A stretch of DNA of 37,764 bases from an uncultured Candidatus Saccharibacteria bacterium (GTDB taxonomy: Bacteria > Patescibacteriota > Minisyncoccia > Minisyncoccales > PEYH01). The stretch spans positions 1 through 37,764 of the forward strand of contig CAZXXF010000001.1 in NCBI GenBank assembly GCA_964644805.1. The letters run 5' to 3'. Every line of letters starts with the position of its first letter. The first letter of the stretch is position 1. Of the stretch, positions 71 through 37,764 are shown one piece after another. The position numbers and the translations under genes are program-made. The notes beneath the pieces are model-generated. The model was not told where the DNA came from and searched no databases. It worked only from the letters and a program-made list of their open reading frames with translations.

Positions 71-148
71 AATCAAAAATCAAATTGAAAAGAGATTAAA
101 AACTTTTAATCTTTGCTTGGGCTATAATATTGAAGCCAAACCGCCTGA

Positions 149-2518
149 TTATTGGGTCTGGATCTCGGGCGGATTTTCCTCCATTGTCTCTTGGCTTTCG
201 TTAATGCCCCACAGGGCGGGCAGGCCTTCATTTAAATTTTCTATTATTTTCTTGATCTCCTGATTTTCCGGGTTCAGCTCCTCTATTCTTTTAAAATGGT
301 TGAGCGCCTCCAATTTGGATCCAATCTTGTCCAAAACTAATCCCAGCATGTATCTGGCGTTTGAAAATTCAGGATTCAGTTCTATTGCGCGCTCAAAATC
401 TTTTTTCGCTTCTCTATATTCATTCTTTCTCCAAAAAAGCAAACCTCTCTGAAAAGCGATGCCAGCGTCATGCGCCGCGATATTTTTAGCGACCCCGAGT
501 TTTTTTATCGCTTCCTCAATTTTCCCCTGCTGATCGTAAACAACAGCCATTAGATAATGGGCGGGAGCATAATCCGGTTTGAGCTCAATCGCCCTGTTAA
601 GATTTTCTATCGCGAAAGAAAAAGCTTCGTTTTTTTCTTCATCCAGTTTTTGTTTCTCAAAATTCTGGCCGATCAAAATATAAACCCTTCCTATTTCTCC
701 ATAAGCAAAAGGCGAATTTGGCTCCAGCTCAATCGCTTTTTTATAAGAATCTATCGCCAATTCTCCTGCCTTATTGGCACTATCAATTCCGATCAGGTTT
801 CTATAGAAAAATCCCCTTACGTTCCAGTTGGCAACATTAAAAGGACCAATATTGACCGCGTTGCCGATCGCTTCAACGCCCTTGGCAATCTCTTGATAAA
901 TAAGGGTTTCTTTTTCTTTTTGGTCGGTTATTTTAACGTCGCCTGAAATCTCGTTCGCTCTCGCAAGATGAAGCTGGCCAAGGTCTCGTCCATATAAATC
1001 ATGAGATGGATTAAGTTCGAAAGCTTTTTTGGTTAAATCGATTGCCCGTGAAAAATTTCCGGACTGGAGAGCAATGGTGCCTTCAAAATAGTTTGCGTCC
1101 GCCATATATCTTGTTGACTGAATGAAAAATAAGCTGACGCTCAATATGGCAATCATTGCCGCCGCTATGGCCGGATTGAATACCCGGGGTAATAATTTTT
1201 TAAGCTTCCCCGGTTGAAAGGGCCCGCCAAGAGATTTCGCCTTATAGTTTTCATTTGCCCTCAGAGAAAAAATAAGGGCGGCAAAAAACCAAAAAATAAA
1301 CCACAAAACGAAATTAAAAGCATAAAAAAGAGTTAAAATTATTAATCCTGCGGCTGAAGAAAAAAACGCGATGTCTATTTTATTATCATCTTGCGGGGAT
1401 ATTTTTTTTACAAAAATTCTAAATGCGGAAAAAACCAGCAAACAGATTAAAAACACCATTGATCCAAGGCCCAATATTCCCCTGGTTATGATCCAGTCAA
1501 AAAAAGAAGCATTGCCCGATAAAAATCTGTTATTCCAGAAAATGCTTAGATTGATCGCTTCGGACCGGAATTTAGAATAATTAAAAACAAAAGTGCCGGG
1601 ACCTGATCCAAAAAATACATTTTTTGCGCCTTCGCCAAAGGATCCTTTTAAAATATCCACTTCGGAACTAAAACTGGGCGAAACTTCAACCGGTATTGCC
1701 GGAAAAATCTTTGGTCGCAATGGAAAGAACAGAAAAAATATGGAAATGACGGTTATGGTCATAAGCGCCGCCATCCAATAAAAATCGCTCTTTCCTTGAA
1801 ATTTACGCACTCCGAACAAGAATATAATAAATGCGGAAAAAACCAGCAAAAACCAGGCGGTTTTAAAGCCGATTAGAATAATAGATAAAAGCAAAATAAA
1901 GGTAGTTAAACAAAAAATCCACTTTTTTCCTTGGGAGCGGTGGAAAAGAAAAGCAATTGATATCGGAAAAAAGATGGCCGATAAAATCGCGACGCTGTTA
2001 ATAGAGCCGACGGTGTTAAAAGCAACCGCCTTGACGAAATCGATCGGCAAAATAAAAATCCGATGCAATTGGAGAATGGCCAACGCCGCGGATGCCGAAA
2101 AAGAAATCAGAATAAGCTTTAAGGCGAATAAAGCGTTTTTTTTATCGGCAAATAATTGAATGAACAGAAAAACAAAAACGACGAAGGCGAATATTGCGGA
2201 AAAACTATCTGCTATGTCCAACGGATTGCCAAAAAAAGAATTATTTTTCCATAAAGAAAGGGCCGAAGAAACAAAAGAGGAAAATAAAATTACAATAAGG
2301 GCTATATATAGCATTTTTTCGCCCCTAAAAGGCGTTTTGCCCGAAAAAAGGCGGTCAAAAAAATATCCGATCGATCCGACCGCCAGCAAAAAAACCAAAA
2401 GAAGGTGCTTTGGGAATCCCAAGAAATCCTGCGAGAAAGGAAGAAAAAATAACGGGGCGGAAAAAACGATTGAATAGATGGAGAATTTAGATATTGTCTC
2501 GAAAATTTTTTTGTTCAT
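149..2518 (-). CDS. Polytopic membrane protein (O-antigen ligase/Wzy-like) fused to C-terminal TPR repeats
   Basis: 789 aa. The first ~470 aa are a series of hydrophobic helices. The C-terminal ~300 aa carry several TPR-like units (e.g. AIELEPNSPFAYGEIGRVY, AIELKPDYAPAHYLMAVVY, AIELNPEFSNARYMLGLVL). ATG start at 2518. Confidence 0.7.
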   Translation of the reverse strand: MNKKIFETISKFSIYSIVFSAPLFFLPFSQDFLGFPKHLLLVFLLAVGSIGYFFDRLFSGKTPFRGEKMLYIALIVILFSSFVSSALSLWKNNSFFGNPLDIADSFSAIFAFVVFVFLFIQLFADKKNALFALKLILISFSASAALAILQLHRIFILPIDFVKAVAFNTVGSINSVAILSAIFFPISIAFLFHRSQGKKWIFCLTTFILLLSIILIGFKTAWFLLVFSAFIIFLFGVRKFQGKSDFYWMAALMTITVISIFFLFFPLRPKIFPAIPVEVSPSFSSEVDILKGSFGEGAKNVFFGSGPGTFVFNYSKFRSEAINLSIFWNNRFLSGNASFFDWIITRGILGLGSMVFLICLLVFSAFRIFVKKISPQDDNKIDIAFFSSAAGLIILTLFYAFNFVLWFIFWFFAALIFSLRANENYKAKSLGGPFQPGKLKKLLPRVFNPAIAAAMIAILSVSLFFIQSTRYMADANYFEGTIALQSGNFSRAIDLTKKAFELNPSHDLYGRDLGQLHLARANEISGDVKITDQKEKETLIYQEIAKGVEAIGNAVNIGPFNVANWNVRGFFYRNLIGIDSANKAGELAIDSYKKAIELEPNSPFAYGEIGRVYILIGQNFEKQKLDEEKNEAFSFAIENLNRAIELKPDYAPAHYLMAVVYDQQGKIEEAIKKLGVAKNIAAHDAGIAFQRGLLFWRKNEYREAKKDFERAIELNPEFSNARYMLGLVLDKIGSKLEALNHFKRIEELNPENQEIKKIIENLNEGLPALWGINESQETMEENPPEIQTQ

Positions 2519-34307: not shown

Positions 34308-34379
34308 GGGCACGTAGCTCAAGGGTGGAGCAAGGTCCTTATAAGGCCGAGGTTGTTGGTTCAAATCCAACCGTGCCCA
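34308..34379 (+). tRNA. tRNA-Ile (anticodon UAU)
   Basis: GGGCACG-TA-GCTC-AAGGGTG-GAGC-A-AGGTC-CTTATAA-GGCCG-AGGTT-GTTGG-TTCAAAT-CCAAC-CGTGCCC-A. U33 and A37 are in place and anticodon positions 34-36 read TAT. There is one A:G mismatch at 27:43. Confidence 0.75.
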
Positions 34380-34683: not shown

Positions 34684-35412
34684 ATGATCCACAAACAAAC
34701 AATAGATGTAATCTATGAAGACGAGGATTTAATTGTCGCGGACAAGCCCGCTGGCATAACGGTATTTAATGAAAAAGAGCGCGCCGCCGATTCTTTAATA
34801 GAGAATCTTTTAACACAAAAGCCTGATTTGAAAAAAATTGGCATGCCTCCTCGGTTTGGAATAATACACAGGCTAGATAAAGACACTTCGGGCCTATTGC
34901 TTGTTGCAAAAAACAATGAGGCCTTGTTTTTTTTTCAAAAACAGTTTAAAGAAAGAAATGTCGCAAAAACCTACATTGCCCTTGTCTGGGGCATAATAAA
35001 AAAAGATTCTGGCACGATAAAAACTCTTATCGGAAGATCAAAAAATAGATTAAAACAAATGGCAATACCCTCCCTTCTCAATATCTGTCATCAAAAAGGG
35101 TTAAGAGATGCGGAAACCGGTTGGCGGGTGGAAAAAAGATTTAAAGATTACACCCTCTTGGAAGTTTATCCAAAGACCGGAAGAAAACATCAAATCAGAA
35201 CGCACCTTGCCCACATCGGACATCCTGTTGTTGGAGATAAATTATACTCTTTCAAAAACCAGATTGCGTCTGACAAGCTTAAAAGACAGTTCTTGCATAA
35301 TTATCGATTAAGCATTAAGCTCAAAAGCGGAGAATGGAAAACATTTATTTGCCCAATGCCAACTGATTTAAAAATTGTTTTAAAAAAATTAAAAAAATAT
35401 GAAACCAACTGA
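34684..35412 (+). CDS. RluA-family pseudouridine synthase
   Basis: Catalytic motif HRLDKDTSGLLLVAKN and C-terminal HQIRTHLAHIGHPVVGD. ATG 34684 has GGAGG 9 nt upstream and is preferred over TTG 34660. No S4 domain. Confidence 0.85.
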   Translation: MIHKQTIDVIYEDEDLIVADKPAGITVFNEKERAADSLIENLLTQKPDLKKIGMPPRFGIIHRLDKDTSGLLLVAKNNEALFFFQKQFKERNVAKTYIALVWGIIKKDSGTIKTLIGRSKNRLKQMAIPSLLNICHQKGLRDAETGWRVEKRFKDYTLLEVYPKTGRKHQIRTHLAHIGHPVVGDKLYSFKNQIASDKLKRQFLHNYRLSIKLKSGEWKTFICPMPTDLKIVLKKLKKYETN

Positions 35413-35815
35413 CATATTCGGTGCGTCAAAATCAATAGGAAAAAATTTAGATCTGCGATCGGGAGATATCGTAAAAATTCATGAAATTACGGGTGATCCA
35501 AAACAAAAAAAAGCTCAAATTTTTGAAGGGATCGTATTGGCTCGCAAACATAGAAAAGAGACAGGCGCCACCATTACCGTCAGAAAAATAATAGACGGGG
35601 TGGGAGTGGAAAAAATTTTCCCCCTCCTTTCGCCTACCATACAAAAAATAGAAATAATCAAAAGAACCAAATCGCGGAGAGCGAAACTTTATTATTTAAG
35701 AGAAAGGTCTCAAAAGAAATCGGTCTTAAAAAGAAAAAAGGATTTCACTCCGTCGGTTGTCACCTATCAGGAGGAAAAAGCGAAAAACGAAAAAATGGAA
35801 GGGGAAAAAGATTAA
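35399..35815 (+). CDS. rplS: 50S ribosomal protein L19 with a K/E-rich C-terminal tail
   Basis: ...LRSGDIVKIHEIT...QIFEGIVLARKH....ATITVRKI..GVGVEKIFPLLSP.I.KIEI is the L19 core. About 25 extra basic/acidic residues follow at the C-terminus. Confidence 0.9.
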   Translation: MKPTDIFGASKSIGKNLDLRSGDIVKIHEITGDPKQKKAQIFEGIVLARKHRKETGATITVRKIIDGVGVEKIFPLLSPTIQKIEIIKRTKSRRAKLYYLRERSQKKSVLKRKKDFTPSVVTYQEEKAKNEKMEGEKD

Positions 35816-35817
35816 AT

Positions 35818-35905
35818 GCGCGGGTGCTGTAATTGGTAGCCAGGCAAGGTTGAGGACCTTGTGTCCTTAAAAGACGTAGAGGTTCAAGTCCTCTCCCGCG
35901 CACCA
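35818..35905 (+). tRNA. tRNA-Leu (anticodon GAG), CCA encoded
   Basis: Acceptor GCGCGGG/CCCGCGC, anticodon arm CAAGG-TTGAGGA-CCTTG, long variable arm, T arm AGAGG-TTCAAGT-CCTCT, 3' ACCA. Confidence 0.9.
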
Positions 35906-37360
35906 TTTCGGAAATAGCAAGGCAGAGGAAGCCGCCTCGCTTCGCTCGGCGGCCAGTTTGTATTGAATTTTCGGGGCAAAACCGAATTGGCGATTTTCTA
36001 AAACATGGTTCGAGCCGATTGTTTTCAGAAATGTTGTCATTTCCTCTTTGTTTTCTGATTGAACTAAATTCGCAGCTTGATTTAAGGATAAAACAAACTC
36101 ACGAGCCGGTTCGAGCCAAGACAACCCTTTTTGTTCAAAATCTCTAATTTTCTCGCCAAGCTCGACCTTTTGGGTAAGTAACTTATCTTTTCTCGCTTTG
36201 TAATCATCGGCAGAAATGACTTCGCTAAGATAAGCGTCAAGTAGTTTTTCGAGCTTGGTTTCGATTTCAGTTAATTCCATTTTGAGATTTTGAACAGCAG
36301 TTTTAGCTTCCTCTTTTGCTCGCTCCTCGTCTTTTTGTAGTTCCGCCAAAACTTTTTCTGTGTCTTGGCTCGACAAAGAAACTTTTTGAAGATAACTTCT
36401 GATCTGTTCGGTTAGAAGTTCCTCTCGCAAATAATGCTTTTCTTGGCACGGTCCTTTCTTTTTGGTGCAATGGTAGTAATGATGTCCCTTTTGTATTTCG
36501 GCAGTAATGGCGCAACCACATGAAGCGCATTTGAGTAAGCCAAGAAAAGCAAAATGATGTTTACGAATATCTTTTGACTTTCCGCGTTTTTTCATCACTT
36601 CTTGGCAAGTATCAAAAAGTTTCTTCGAGATTAACGGCTCTTGAGTTCCTTCAAAAACCTCTCCCTTAAATTTCATGAGACCAATATAGAAAATATTTTG
36701 TAGAATTTTTTGCAAACTACTGATTGAGATTTTGTTGTTCTTGTTACCACGAAGATTGTGTTTGACGCACCAATTTGCGAGAGAATGAAGCGGATAATTT
36801 CCAGCGGCATAAAGCTCAAAAACTTTTTTCACCAGTGGAGATTTTGCGGGGTCAATATCTACTCCTCGCGTTCTTGCATTGTTAAGATAGCCAACCGGAG
36901 CCCAGCCAGGCCATACGCCATTTCGTATTTTTTGGCGCAATCCACGCTTCACATTCTCTCGCAAATTATCTACAAAATATTTTGATTGACCAAAGGCGAT
37001 ATTCAACATGAACAAGCCTTGTGGTGTCGCTTCGAACCAAAATGTTGGAAATTTAAGGGAGCGAATCAAGCCGCGATCAACGAAATGGATAATTTTGCCT
37101 CCGTCTACACTATTGCGAGCTAATCTATCCGGGTGCCATGCAATTATCCCGTCCGCCTTGCCTTTTTCGAGTAATGACAACATTTCTGCGAATTTCATTC
37201 GCCCGGGCTCTTTGGCGGTTTTGGCCTCGCAAAGCGAGGCAACAATTTCCAATTTTTCTTTGGCGGCATACTCTTGCAGCTCTACGAGCTGCGCTTCAAT
37301 ACTCAAAACCTGGCGGTCATCTTCTTCGGTAGATTTTCTTGCGTATAATATGTATCTCAT
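35867..37360 (-). CDS. Large serine recombinase (resolvase/invertase N-domain, recombinase domain, zinc ribbon, coiled coil)
   Basis: MRYILYARKSTEEDDRQ with the catalytic Ser in YARKST, HPDRLARN, recombinase domain GW.PVGY, zinc ribbon CASCGC...HYYHC....C and a long coiled coil. The last 13 codons are antisense to tRNA-Leu. Confidence 0.9.
   Translation of the reverse strand: MRYILYARKSTEEDDRQVLSIEAQLVELQEYAAKEKLEIVASLCEAKTAKEPGRMKFAEMLSLLEKGKADGIIAWHPDRLARNSVDGGKIIHFVDRGLIRSLKFPTFWFEATPQGLFMLNIAFGQSKYFVDNLRENVKRGLRQKIRNGVWPGWAPVGYLNNARTRGVDIDPAKSPLVKKVFELYAAGNYPLHSLANWCVKHNLRGNKNNKISISSLQKILQNIFYIGLMKFKGEVFEGTQEPLISKKLFDTCQEVMKKRGKSKDIRKHHFAFLGLLKCASCGCAITAEIQKGHHYYHCTKKKGPCQEKHYLREELLTEQIRSYLQKVSLSSQDTEKVLAELQKDEERAKEEAKTAVQNLKMELTEIETKLEKLLDAYLSEVISADDYKARKDKLLTQKVELGEKIRDFEQKGLSWLEPAREFVLSLNQAANLVQSENKEEMTTFLKTIGSNHVLENRQFGFAPKIQYKLAAERSEAASSALLFPKWCAGEDLNLYVF
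35900..35997. repeat. Inverted repeat A (98 bp), left copy
   Basis: Exact reverse complement of 37396-37493, compared base by base (98/98). It begins with GCACCA, the last 6 nt of tRNA-Leu. 51 of 98 positions are G/C. Confidence 0.95.
35999..36025. repeat. Inverted repeat B (27 bp), left copy
   Basis: TAAAACATGGTTCGAGCCGATTGTTTT is the exact reverse complement of 37604-37630. It is itself an imperfect dyad (AAAACA...TGTTTT around TCGA). Confidence 0.95.
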
Positions 37361-37368
37361 ATGATTTG

Positions 37369-37395
37369 GATTAAAAATTTTTCTTTTCTTCTTTC
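37369..37395. repeat. Inverted repeat C (27 bp), proximal copy
   Basis: GATTAAAAATTTTTCTTTTCTTCTTTC is the exact reverse complement of 37634-37660. It lies 8 nt upstream of the recombinase ATG and directly abuts repeat A'. Confidence 0.95.
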
Positions 37396-37493
37396 AAAAT
37401 CGCCAATTCGGTTTTGCCCCGAAAATTCAATACAAACTGGCCGCCGAGCGAAGCGAGGCGGCTTCCTCTGCCTTGCTATTTCCGAAATGGTGC
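37396..37493. repeat. Inverted repeat A' (98 bp), right copy
   Basis: Reverse complement of 35900-35997, located in the recombinase upstream region. Confidence 0.95.
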
Positions 37494-37603
37494 AGTATTC
37501 TTGAATTAGTCCGAACGCATTTCGCCGCCTGCGGCGGCGAGGAACCCCCCGCGAATTCGGAGCGGCTTCGCCGTGAGATTTCAAAACCGCCAAAGAGCCC
37601 GGA

Positions 37604-37630
37604 AAAACAATCGGCTCGAACCATGTTTTA
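37604..37630. repeat. Inverted repeat B' (27 bp), right copy
   Basis: Reverse complement of 35999-36025. It is separated from A' by a 110-bp G+C-rich spacer (65 of 110 G/C by hand count). Confidence 0.95.
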
Positions 37631-37633
37631 ACT

Positions 37634-37660
37634 GAAAGAAGAAAAGAAAAATTTTTAATC
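37634..37660. repeat. Inverted repeat C (27 bp), distal copy
   Basis: GAAAGAAGAAAAGAAAAATTTTTAATC is the reverse complement of 37369-37395. Confidence 0.95.
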
Positions 37661-37717
37661 ATTAAATTCATAGGATTTTGACCAAGAAACAGCAGAAATG
37701 CTGATTTTTTGTTGGGC

Positions 37718-37746
37718 TTGACAGATAGCACTAAATATGCTAAACT
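37718..37746 (+). promoter_or_regulatory. Outward-facing sigma70-like promoter with an extended -10
   Basis: TTGACA (37718-37723), 17-nt spacer ending in TGc, TAAACT (37741-37746). It points rightwards out of the window, divergent from the recombinase. Confidence 0.5.
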
Positions 37747-37764
37747 TGTTGCAGAATCGGAATT

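Follow-up and report, generated by a model that had tools for sequence, protein, structure and literature searches.

Positions 35818-37764 of the window (the whole stretch of 37,764 nucleotides that was analyzed) probably hold the recombinase-proximal portion of a small integrative element that its large serine recombinase (LSR) inserted at the 3′ end of a tRNA-Leu(GAG) gene; we put the probability of this explanation as a whole at about 0.65. Because the far end of the element lies past position 37764, its attL site and the distal copies of two segments, here called E and F, are predicted from relatives. Among the explanations that a first-pass annotation had offered for the repeats in this region, the integration scar of a tRNA-targeting island fits best, with one 98-nt repeat arm (A) as the putative element-side arm of attR and its partner (A′), together with the adjoining module X, as a putative internal, inverted copy of attP. 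The two genes concerned are as follows.

35818-35905, + strand: tRNA-Leu(GAG), the probable integration target and attB-derived arm of attR (ARAGORN, Rfam)
35867-37360, − strand: gene for the LSR, 497 aa (open reading frame, Pfam)

The LSR carries the Pfam domains Resolvase (PF00239, E = 1e-21, residues 4-150, the resolvase-type catalytic domain), Recombinase (PF07508, E = 2e-14) and Zn_ribbon_recom (PF13408, E = 5e-7), the last two also past their cut-offs. Its catalytic motif YARKSTEEDDRQ, which contains Ser10, varies hardly at all within the family, and the enzyme is of the large serine integrase type, not a small invertase. When it was compared with characterized enzymes, the RD-ZD region aligned with that of A118 Int (E = 3e-6 over 160 aa), and the scores against CcrB and XisF were far under their cut-offs. 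More than 7,800 homologues were found, with 74-92% identity among the matches listed; members of the family from many candidate phyla are 67-92% identical to the LSR of the window, and their C-terminal tails, when read back, prove to be tRNA antisense. Look-ups for proteins identical to this LSR, or to the ribosomal protein L19 of the window, gave no match. The reading frame in the window has the same ending: it passes through repeat arms B and A and then enters the tRNA in antisense, so that its last codons overlap the tRNA gene. The conserved 30-mer of E had no match among viral contigs, and there is thus no sign of a phage origin.

The target gene is well defined. ARAGORN identifies it as tRNA-Leu(gag), + strand, 35818-35905, and an Rfam scan of 35700-37764 (E ≤ 1) recovered it at 49.2 bits, with sub-threshold noise and no other family besides. 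Arm A had been described as starting 6 nt inside this tRNA and as encoding the C-terminus of the recombinase, and both statements hold, the arm corresponding to LSR nt 1364-1461. The tRNA itself is intact, the insertion having taken place at its 3′ end. A tRNA gene was located at the 3′ end of the recombinase gene in 64 of 83 loci, with at least 15 amino acids covered, and relatives on other tRNAs keep the geometry of the window. One such element (L014) is embedded in an ordinary same-strand run of host tRNA genes, with tRNA-Thr(ggt) to its left and tRNA-Tyr and tRNA-Thr(tgt) to its right. None of the loci yielded a true empty site, and the unoccupied target, as we picture it, would be a reconstruction from the flanks of occupied loci.

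The first-pass annotation had listed three exact inverted-repeat pairs around the gene. A repeat search returned two of them unchanged, A (98/98) and B (27/27), each 100% identical; the third, C, is likewise an exact inverted pair, but its arms are 28 nt rather than 27 nt long, and the proximal one overlaps A′ by 1 nt. Two more pairs, D (21 nt, 100%) and the intragenic G (16 nt), as well as a 17-nt palindrome, m, had been missed. With D recognized, the 110-bp module X, which is indeed present, turns out to be composite and to consist of E plus D′. When 35000-37764 was shuffled 100 times with its dinucleotides preserved, the length of the longest perfect inverted repeat had a mean of 12.8 nt and a maximum of 18 nt, compared with 98 nt in the real sequence; pairs A, B and C all exist, far beyond chance. 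The features are listed here in their order along the window, with the strand where one applies.

35900-35905: putative attR core GCACCA, an identical 6-mer that ends both A arms
35900-35997: arm A, putative P arm of attR on the element side and 3′ coding end of the LSR gene
35999-36025: arm B, LSR nt 1336-1362
36026-36041: arm G2, intragenic, pairs with G1
37173-37188: arm G1, intragenic, pairs with G2
37203-37223: arm D, LSR nt 138-158
37224-37240: palindrome m (+ strand sequence GCCTCGCAAAGCGAGGC), located within coding sequence between F and D
37241-37268: arm F, LSR nt 93-120, partner expected past the window end
37369-37396: proximal arm C, purine-rich leader immediately upstream of the LSR start codon
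37396-37493: arm A′, putative P arm of the internal inverted attP copy
37494-37581: E, most of X, putative P′ arm of the internal attP copy, with two GC-rich hairpins
37582-37602: D′, the remainder of X, inverted copy of LSR nt 138-158
37604-37630: B′, inverted copy of LSR nt 1336-1362
37633-37660: distal arm C, putative leader of the cargo slot
37661-37764, + strand: first part of the cargo segment, which the window end truncates

Pairs E and F were found in relatives, where the partner of F is a distal copy adjoining the distal E, and their second copies are expected past the window end at 37764. The A arms (98-101 nt) are 98-100% identical within most complete loci and divergent between loci, and the outer 30-45 nt of E are 92-100% conserved between loci. 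Measured against the gene body of the LSR, where third-codon-position entropy is 1.19, arm B has a value of 0.59, and the synonymous-site entropy of arm F (0.29) is the lowest in the gene. The palindromy of m is retained by compensating changes (GCCTCGC..GCGAGGC versus GCTTCC..GGAAGC, encoding LC and FQ, respectively), and the pairing of G1 with G2 is kept, as nt 173-190 with nt 1318-1335, in several loci.

The same layout was found in ~40 independently assembled relatives from many Patescibacteria lineages, some of them inside contigs of 95-320 kb. In one of these (L002, a 256-kb scaffold, at tRNA-Tyr) A is 98 nt long and 98% identical, B 27 nt and 100%, and C 33 nt and 88%. Dozens of 80 GTDB loci carry the modules of the window in identical order and orientation, and self-comparison of 46 loci returned six pairs whose distance from the ATG is constant and whose arms are in most cases 96-100% identical within one locus. 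The E and A pairs are both present in 38 loci, with an element size of 2,302-3,519 bp. Read in the orientation of the LSR gene, the full element in relatives runs from host sequence into core-E(-) F(-), the cargo ORF or ORFs on the opposite strand, and C(-) B(-) D(-), and continues through E(+)-core-A(-) C(+), the ATG, F, m, D, the gene body with G, then B and A(+)-core, to the tRNA in antisense. Neither an inverted dimer nor one nested self-insertion accounts cleanly for the block order (gene order, each block flipped), and both were rejected as origins of this layout.

Comparison of junctions suggests how these blocks relate to site-specific recombination. In junction triples from 22 loci the identity switches exactly at a shared core of 4-6 nt, GTGC, and the right (A..TGGTGC/tRNA), internal (A..TGGTGC/E) and left (host..(TG)GTGC/E) junctions recur in every locus examined. 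At a tRNA-Asn locus (L046) the core is GCTC, and at a second one (L052) GCTC occurs at the left junction too. We therefore regard as well supported, on these comparisons, an assignment in which the attP of the element would be A-core-E and its recombination with the tRNA 3′ end would give attR (A joined to tRNA) and attL (host joined to E). For the window this would place attR at 35900-35997 / 35818-35905, with the crossover probably within GCAC, and attL past the window end. A TTCGAAC-like motif lies 16-17 nt from the core in E and the T-loop motif of the tRNA lies 11 nt from it, an offset that we take to be the difference in half-site spacing between attP and attB of LSRs, as in the A118/LI integrase structures.

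An exact inverted copy of the attP so assigned lies directly upstream of the LSR gene, at 37396-37581, and in relatives a second, inverted copy of E forms the far end of the element (attL). As a consequence of the inverted internal attP copy, the recombinase module stands between A arms of 98 nt, and the cargo module between E arms of ~95 nt. The ends of the mobile unit, E(-) and A(+), are mutually unrelated, and the core copies beside the modules are inverted, not direct. What the internal attP copy and the short repeats are for can only be inferred. The remaining junctions (B/A, C/A, B/C, F/D, F/E and E/D) were also considered as attP/attL/attR sets of two more site systems with a palindromic attB, and this was rejected since filler or a 17-nt insert occupies the position where overlapping cores would be expected. 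No motif is common to the short arms, and 0-3 nt of filler, not a shared core, lie at their junctions; the short arms do not, in consequence, have the appearance of recombinase crossover sites.

The block at 37582-37660 (B′, C and D′) comprises short copies of segments of the recombinase gene, which together with F frame a slot for one or two ORFs. In the window the cargo segment has an ATG at 37737, a hairpin that resembles a terminator at 37690-37703 and a site that resembles a promoter at 37718-37746, and a promoter and terminator scan gave no sigma-70-like site between the two C copies. At the cargo position relatives have 0.47-1.65 kb (one locus was scored by script at 1.87 kb) with one or two unrelated genes, followed by the F and E copies and then attL. 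Cargo ORFs in relatives start 0-20 nt from C and stop 0-33 nt from F; as the inverted C copy lies just upstream of the cargo start codon, at a distance of 2-20 nt, C is a leader common to both genes. Among 38 elements no cargo was common to any two, and the families include methyltransferases, HD, NUDIX, AHSA1, SET, radical SAM, DsrE and FAD oxidoreductase. Excision by canonical LSRs requires a directionality factor. No gene for one was found among the genes of the element, the recombinase being the only conserved gene and the cargo differing each time, although such a factor could be encoded in trans. The proposed model leaves unexplained why the 20-28-nt arms stay identical to the resident LSR gene across lineages.

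A further consequence of the att assignment concerns the protein itself. Since the att core lies within the recombinase ORF, the protein of a circular or flipped form would end in a tail encoded by E. Read in the recombinase frame, E is open and encodes SILELVRTHFAACGGEE; in most of the subfamilies in which the frame could be set, 17 or more codons of the tail are free of stops, and ..WC-SILELVRTHFAA.GGEE looks conserved. The entropy of its three codon positions is 0.67 / 0.26 / 0.71, with conservative substitutions; this periodicity is a modest signal, with p of roughly 0.02 from related sequences, and the tail overlaps a DNA site that would be conserved regardless. A protein search for full-length recombinases with the E-encoded tail returned short ORFs and one partial gene (P0128) only. 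In the mechanism that we propose, integration would swap the E-encoded tail for codons read from tRNA antisense; inversion between the A arms would bring the tail back and would put the LSR gene downstream of, and co-directional with, the tRNA, and it might serve as an on/off or directionality switch.

Other forms of the element were found as well. In two public contigs (L083 and L087) the recombinase 3′ end is followed by A-core-E(-) F(-) and cargo, without a tRNA, although these junctions could also come from head-to-tail tandem copies instead of circles. Flipped isomers came to light only in a pattern scan of metagenome DNA, which gave three loci (L085, L088 and L090) with the recombinase module inverted between the A arms; their ORFs are intact (541, 547 and 532 aa) and end in the E-encoded tail. 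By comparison with these three loci, flipped forms numbered 0 of ~46 in GTDB, where all loci were of one isomer. Two identical inverted attP sites on a circle should permit integration both ways round, yet the isomer with both modules flipped was likewise seen in 0 of the ~46 GTDB loci; the model accounts for its absence by survivorship only, which is an assumption. Other rearrangements involve the short arms. At L009 the E/D junction at attL runs directly into the gene body, which indicates that recombination took place inside D, and at L089 the rearrangement point is the G arm. Two loci (L059 and L084) hold arrays of two cassettes, whose spacers are copies of recombinase-gene segments plus the E palindrome, and such multi-cassette arrays might arise by tandem insertion followed by deletion between E palindromes.

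Several other explanations of the repeats were weighed against the integrative element. We regard as unlikely one in which they act by folding of a single DNA strand, where the E/E and A/A stems, stacked upon the strand of the internal attP, would reunite the halves in attL and attR as a nicked duplex attP, with C/B/A forming a three-way junction and E/F/m/D a four-way junction. The occasion would be uptake of single-stranded DNA by natural transformation, or the lagging strand, and folding of this kind would permit precise circularization and excision without a directionality factor, for which the element lacks a gene. Each junction triple does have the exact three- or four-way topology, with 0-3 unpaired nt; synonymous sites are unusually conserved in the arms and in further nested intragenic repeats; and arms of 18-21 nt acted as rearrangement points (L009 and L089). 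Transition mismatches in the A arms are compatible with G·U pairing as often as not (30 versus 30), from which it follows that arm identity acts at the DNA level. Against this, the element has no Rep or relaxase gene, and serine recombinases act on duplex DNA. Nor can all the helices exist at once, since a ~200-bp rod of E plus A cannot bridge junctions also joined by ~48 bp of D plus B. Folded as RNA, E plus core is no more stable than its shuffled versions (z = -0.62), and E is not a structured RNA by itself. The corresponding larger proposal, of a new class of element with a single-stranded or self-templating life cycle in which the internal attP is a splint, the ends of each module meet at 3- and 4-way junctions and two C-terminal isoforms follow the state of the element, has in our view a small chance of being right. 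If it were, excision would proceed without a directionality factor, the arms would be re-copied repeatedly, and such an element would be a main single-gene exchange vehicle of naturally competent Patescibacteria.

A shufflon or Hin/Gin-type switch, in which the recombinase would flip segments between every pair, is unlikely beyond the A arms. The first-pass annotation had suggested one or more invertible switches, and for A and A′ this has support, as flipped isomers exist with the gene intact; for B and C, relatives yielded no flipped isomers, and the ~46 GTDB loci are uniform. All pairs are inverted and interleaved, and inversion at B, D or F would alter the C-terminus or N-terminus of the LSR. 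Hin, Gin, Pin and shufflon sites, however, follow one consensus with a common crossover core, whereas the sequences of B, C, D, F and G show no relationship and no common motif, and their junctions have filler in place of a shared core. The protein search gave the alternative tail in just the one partial recombinase named above, and the enzyme is not a small invertase.

We consider it similarly improbable that the repeats act in RNA. Here, in transcripts that come in from outside or in a long leader, C(-) would pair with C(+) and mask the ribosome-binding region while the other arms pair with the coding region. Recombinase expression would be kept down either through fold-back inhibition, known from IS10/IS50, or through targeting by RNase III. 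C does span the purine-rich leader of both genes, and the conserved synonymous sites and nested complementary segments within the gene would also suit this explanation. However, G·U-compatible mismatches are not in excess in A, and B, C and F are similar; Rfam has no matching family; no promoter-like site was found that would join the arms in one transcript; and the attP duplication and the E pair are left unexplained.

The terminal inverted repeats of an IS-like unit, also raised at first pass, prove to be a resemblance only, because the mobile unit exceeds the recombinase module and includes the cargo module. It is very unlikely that the 98-nt A arms delimit an autonomous recombinase module with the cargo module as an unrelated neighbor. 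Two loci favor this: in L074 the module is flanked by a pair of convergent tRNA-Ala genes, each adjoining one A arm, and L039 has no cargo module. Both, however, are variant loci with decayed arms, and elsewhere the attL and attR cores and the circle-type junctions take in the cargo module. Insertion sequences have terminal inverted repeats with a direct target duplication, and the A arms are flanked by inverted, not direct, core copies. An assembly chimera, finally, can be practically dismissed, since the layout recurs in ~40 independent assemblies: the feature does lie at the end of the window, many related contigs break in the A′ region, and 98 and 28 equal k-1 for the common k-mer sizes 99 and 29, but the same arm lengths and order occur mid-contig in long contigs from many projects and other assemblers.

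The integrative element thus preferred does not seem to have been described so far. A literature search found no description of this element or of its layout, in agreement with the first-pass remark that no serine-recombinase element with such an interleaved arrangement was known. It is very common in the ultra-small Patescibacteria, which account for a large part of bacterial diversity and whose means of gene exchange are poorly known. The different passenger gene in each of the 38 complete elements points to a major, overlooked shuttle of single genes, and because many contigs end inside the A′ repeat, such elements are systematically under-reported. Three features go beyond textbook serine integrases, namely an att core within the integrase ORF, an inverted spare attP able to restore the original protein end by inversion, and short own-gene copies that stay identical across lineages, and in combination they could reveal directionality control without an accessory protein. 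A compact integrase with a cargo slot that uses conserved tRNA 3′ ends is also a candidate genome-engineering tool, including for Patescibacteria.

Parts of this arrangement have counterparts in known systems. Intrastrand pairing creates a duplex site in the folded single-stranded attP of CTX-phi and a T-shaped junction in the inverted terminal repeats of AAV; the inverted copies described here could likewise pair within one strand, by analogy only, and the enzymes differ. The att sites of Mx8 intP and SSV1 int lie inside the integrase gene, and in these tyrosine recombinases the crossover inside the ORF alters the C-terminus upon integration, as here, although, unlike here, they are not known to have an internal inverted attP able to restore it by inversion. 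Integron cassettes are likewise unrelated, mostly promoterless single ORFs in a defined slot beside a recombinase gene, and likewise form arrays with palindromic spacers (here L059 and L084). The present element is nevertheless not an integron: its recombinase is a serine rather than a tyrosine enzyme, the slot is framed by copies of the recombinase gene and not by attC, the whole platform is mobile, and its cassettes are known from arrays, not circles. The tycheposons of Prochlorococcus, as outlined in a preprint (bioRxiv 10.1101/2020.12.28.424599), are also small integrative elements at tRNA genes with variable cargo, in another host group. A further parallel is with the large serine integrases (A118/LI, Bxb1, phiC31, TP901-1, and CcrAB and XisF), which have the same resolvase, recombinase and zinc ribbon domains, short att sites whose dyad symmetry is weak and whose shared core is very short, hybrid attL and attR, and the same motif, whose distance from the core is 5-6 bp greater in the P′ arm than in the B′ arm. 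The LSR of the window is only distantly related to these enzymes in sequence, and in contrast to their elements it belongs to a tiny one (recombinase plus one ORF) that has no directionality-factor gene, uses many different tRNA 3′ ends, and carries an inverted second attP and 4-5 short copies of segments of its own gene.

All three inverted-repeat pairs that the first-pass annotation had described around the large serine recombinase (LSR) gene are present in the sequence, and the longest, at 98 nt, far exceeds the longest perfect inverted repeats in dinucleotide shuffles of 35000-37764 (mean 12.8, maximum 18 nt). Arm A does begin 6 nt within tRNA-Leu, and the LSR ORF, which encodes all three LSR domains, crosses B and A and then runs on antisense into this tRNA. 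Two further pairs, D and G, were also found; one D copy occupies part of the 110-bp segment between A' (the A copy at 37396-37493) and B', previously called X, and the remaining 88 nt are here named E.

Features of the window
35818-35905: tRNA-Leu(gag)
35867-37360, minus strand: LSR ORF, 497 aa
35900-35997 / 37396-37493: pair A, 98 nt, 100% (repeat search)
35999-36025 / 37604-37630: pair B, 27 nt, 100% (repeat search)
37369-37396 / 37633-37660: pair C, 28 nt, 100% (repeat search)
37203-37223 / 37582-37602: pair D, 21 nt
36026-36041 / 37173-37188: pair G, 16 nt, both copies within the LSR gene
36772-36787 / 36952-36967: intragenic inverted repeat, 16 nt
36690-36704 / 36969-36983: intragenic inverted repeat, 15 nt
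36376-36389 / 36612-36625: intragenic inverted repeat, 14 nt
36661-36674 / 37048-37061: intragenic inverted repeat, 14 nt

When 46 related loci from public contigs were each compared with themselves, with positions counted from the recombinase ATG, six pairs were found at fixed places. In recombinase orientation, with signs giving the orientation of each arm relative to that gene and m a palindrome, the order is E(-) F(-) [cargo] C(-) B(-) D(-) E(+) A(-) C(+) ATG F m D .. G1 .. G2 B A(+), then the tRNA, and the element measures 2,302-3,519 bp in the 38 loci with both the E and A pairs. The window ends about 100 bp past distal C, so that the cargo gene, an F copy, distal E and the left junction would fall outside it.

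Inverted-repeat pairs of the element, with arm identity within loci
Pair A: upstream copy -141..-44, partner 1364..1461; 98-101 nt; identical in 25/58 loci; 58 distinct arm sequences
Pair B: upstream copy -276..-250, partner 1336..1362; 27 nt; identical in 30/46; 29 distinct
Pair C: upstream copy -304..-279, partner -43..-18; 26-28 nt; identical in 33/43; 34 distinct
Pair D: upstream copy -247..-227, partner 138..158; 20-21 nt; identical in 33/35; 13 distinct
Pair E: distal copy about -1300..-1215, partner -226..-136; 85-104 nt; identical in 29/38; 38 distinct
Pair F: distal copy about -1214..-1187, partner 93..120; 26-37 nt; identical in 40/47; 29 distinct

Three sequences, the right junction, the internal E(+)/A(-) junction (as its reverse complement) and the left junction, were aligned in 22 loci. 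Right and internal junctions are the same through ..TGGTGC and unrelated beyond, and left and internal junctions are unrelated ahead of (TG)GTGC and the same afterwards. At L046, a tRNA-Asn locus, the core is GCTC at all three junctions, and the left junction of L052, the other tRNA-Asn locus, likewise reads GCTC. Judged from sequence, such triples are the signature of attR (A/tRNA), attL (host/E) and attP (A/E) with a 4-6 nt overlap, and the earlier suggestion of an integration scar left by a tRNA-targeting island is right and can now be made precise. The attP sequence is kept inside the integrated element, inverted, immediately upstream of the recombinase gene. This assignment is supported by the element of L014, which sits within an otherwise ordinary same-strand run of host tRNA genes (tRNA-Thr(ggt) on the left, tRNA-Tyr and tRNA-Thr(tgt) on the right), by weak dyad symmetry in the A and E arms beside the core, and by a TTCGAAC-like motif lying 16-17 nt from the core in E, where the tRNA T-loop motif lies 11 nt from it; work on the A118/LI integrase reportedly describes this same offset between attP and attB half-sites of serine integrases.

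Outside attL and attR, a 72-nt perfect direct repeat brackets the whole element in L016 (relative positions -1008..-937 and 1530..1601), and in L070 and L071 an 18-nt piece of the tRNA 3' end recurs in direct orientation at a distance of 130-250 nt to the left of attL; such repeats may stem from former insertions or from tandem copies. In L003, the stretch directly to the left of distal E (2121-2711) encodes the C-terminal portion of another, more divergent serine recombinase (..IFGSNLLLGEKTV..), which suggests that leftovers of other elements accumulate at the same site.

The alternative of an invertible switch is supported for A/A' only. About 46 informative GTDB loci all show the canonical isomer, with the order given above, and a metagenome scan for the pattern B..A..E(-) returned seven loci. 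Three of these (L085, L088 and L090) read tRNA(+)/A(-) C ATG..recombinase..B A(+)/E(-) D(+) B(+) C(+) cargo(+) F(+) E(+)/host, which by its arm order is the canonical element with the recombinase module alone inverted between the A arms; all three retain an intact recombinase ORF (541, 547 and 532 aa, respectively), and L090 matches the window at 100% in its short arms. L087 is of a junction type also seen in L083, described below; L086 and L091 are derivatives that have lost the recombinase, and so is L084 (the contig of protein P0121); in L089 the G pair is the site of a rearrangement. Among the other loci, L009 has attL-E(-)/D(+) joined straight to the gene body, showing that recombination took place within the 21-nt D arms; L074 has a genuine tRNA-Ala in place of E next to A(-); and L081 and L032, with collapsed E hairpins and A arms at 88%, look like old, decaying copies.

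With the core located within the ORF, translation of a recombinase expressed from a circle or from the flipped isomer would run on into E. The E-encoded tail, (S/C/R)-I-L-(E/K)-(L/I/V)-V-R-T-(H/V)-F-A-A-x-G-G-E-E, is found in 33 of the 42 loci in which a reading frame could be assigned, is open for at least 17 codons, and has codon-position entropies of 0.67 / 0.26 / 0.71 with synonymous or conservative substitutions. Apart from short ORFs, a protein search with the recombinase C-terminus plus this continuation returned a single recombinase, the partial P0128. Its contig, L083, has the order recombinase 3' end - B - A - core - E(-) - F(-) - cargo and lacks a tRNA, as expected of a circle junction, or of a tandem. 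Integration would swap the E-encoded tail for tRNA-antisense codons (AGEDLNLYVF in the window), and inversion between the A arms would restore it, leaving the gene downstream of the tRNA and co-directional with it. The exchange may switch recombinase activity or direction, in which case the stability of a quiet state would account for the prevalence of the canonical isomer.

An assembly chimera, also raised initially, is rejected, since the window's modules keep their order and orientation in dozens of 80 loci from GTDB species representatives and, at tRNA-Tyr within the 256-kb scaffold of L002, the repeats stand in the window's order (A 98 nt at 98%, B identical in sequence, C 33 nt at 88%). 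Given this recurrence, the match of the arm lengths 98 and 28 to k-1 values, considered as a sign of artefact, is irrelevant. More than 7,800 proteins are related to the window's recombinase at E <= 1e-20; among the 120 matches listed, identity is 73-92%, names come from many Patescibacteria lineages, and every C-terminal tail reads ..ERSEA....L.FP.WC.GEDSNL, a tRNA's acceptor and T arm read in antisense, which places the whole family on tRNA 3' ends. The adjoining tRNAs cover at least 15 amino-acid specificities. One relative (L017) occupies a tRNA-Ile(tat) gene; a tRNA-Ile with this anticodon, uncommon in bacteria, is also encoded in the window (34308-34379).

Many related contigs begin or end in A' or the internal attP (the starts of L001, L004, L006, L010 and L085; the window end at 37764), implying that the repeats break metagenome assemblies and that elements are under-counted and often split between bins. 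Seven loci (L004, L008, L010, L012, L017, L031 and L055) lie in MAGs titled 'uncultured Gammaproteobacteria bacterium' despite their Patescibacteria-type element, probably through mis-binning or mislabelling.

Arms vary between loci and are mostly identical within one locus. Homologous gene conversion is plausible as the keeper of this identity for arms of ~100 nt, but not for those of 20-28 nt, and no preference for G.U-compatible changes was found among arm mismatches, giving no sign of selection for RNA pairing. Arm boundaries are fixed at junctions, with 0-3 nt of filler between short arms, and variable on the outside; compensating changes preserve the 17-nt palindrome m between F and D in the gene (protein LC vs FQ); and third codon positions are less variable in F (entropy 0.29), G2 (0.56), B (0.59) and inner A (0.74) than in the gene body (1.19). 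Taken together, these features indicate that the segments are constrained as nucleic acid. Other low-entropy windows of the gene fall on further intragenic inverted repeats, and several of the perfect ones at 36376-37061 (LSR nt 300-985) are found again in relatives at windows of low synonymous variation. The best-conserved part of A, distant subfamilies included, is a 19-nt stretch, GCCGAGCGAAGCGAGGCGG (codons AERSEA; within 35931-35957 and 37436-37462), which resembles m and a GCGAAGC motif of E and may be a protein-binding site.

The cargo slot, from F(-) to C(-), holds one or two ORFs on the opposite strand, with no similarity between the cargo of any two of 38 elements, although their recombinase genes reach 88% nucleotide identity. 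Pfam families include four methyltransferases, HD, NUDIX, AHSA1, DUF218, SET, radical SAM, FAD oxidoreductase and DsrE. Between C and the ORF start lie 0-20 nt, and between the ORF end and F 0-33 nt, making C a leader common to cargo and recombinase and the slot a place for almost bare ORFs. In most relatives the cargo ATG directly follows C, unlike the window, where a terminator-like hairpin (37690-37703) and a promoter-like TTGACA-17-TAAACT (37718-37746) follow, with an ATG at 37737. L059 and L084 carry two cassettes separated by C(-) B(-) D(-), a collapsed E palindrome and F(-), an arrangement that would result from tandem copies if the stretch between the palindromic centres of two E copies was then deleted.

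The element is widespread and its architecture strongly conserved, and a search of a literature collection found no description of it. By domains and att logic it is a serine integrase element, although A118 Int, CcrB and XisF are only remote relatives of its protein. As here, the att site lies within the integrase gene in Mx8 and SSV1, whose enzymes are tyrosine recombinases. In its variable single-ORF cargo and its cassette arrays the element resembles integrons, in its small size and tRNA targeting tycheposons, and in the potential pairing of its inverted att copies CTX-phi; none of these systems is known to combine all of these features.
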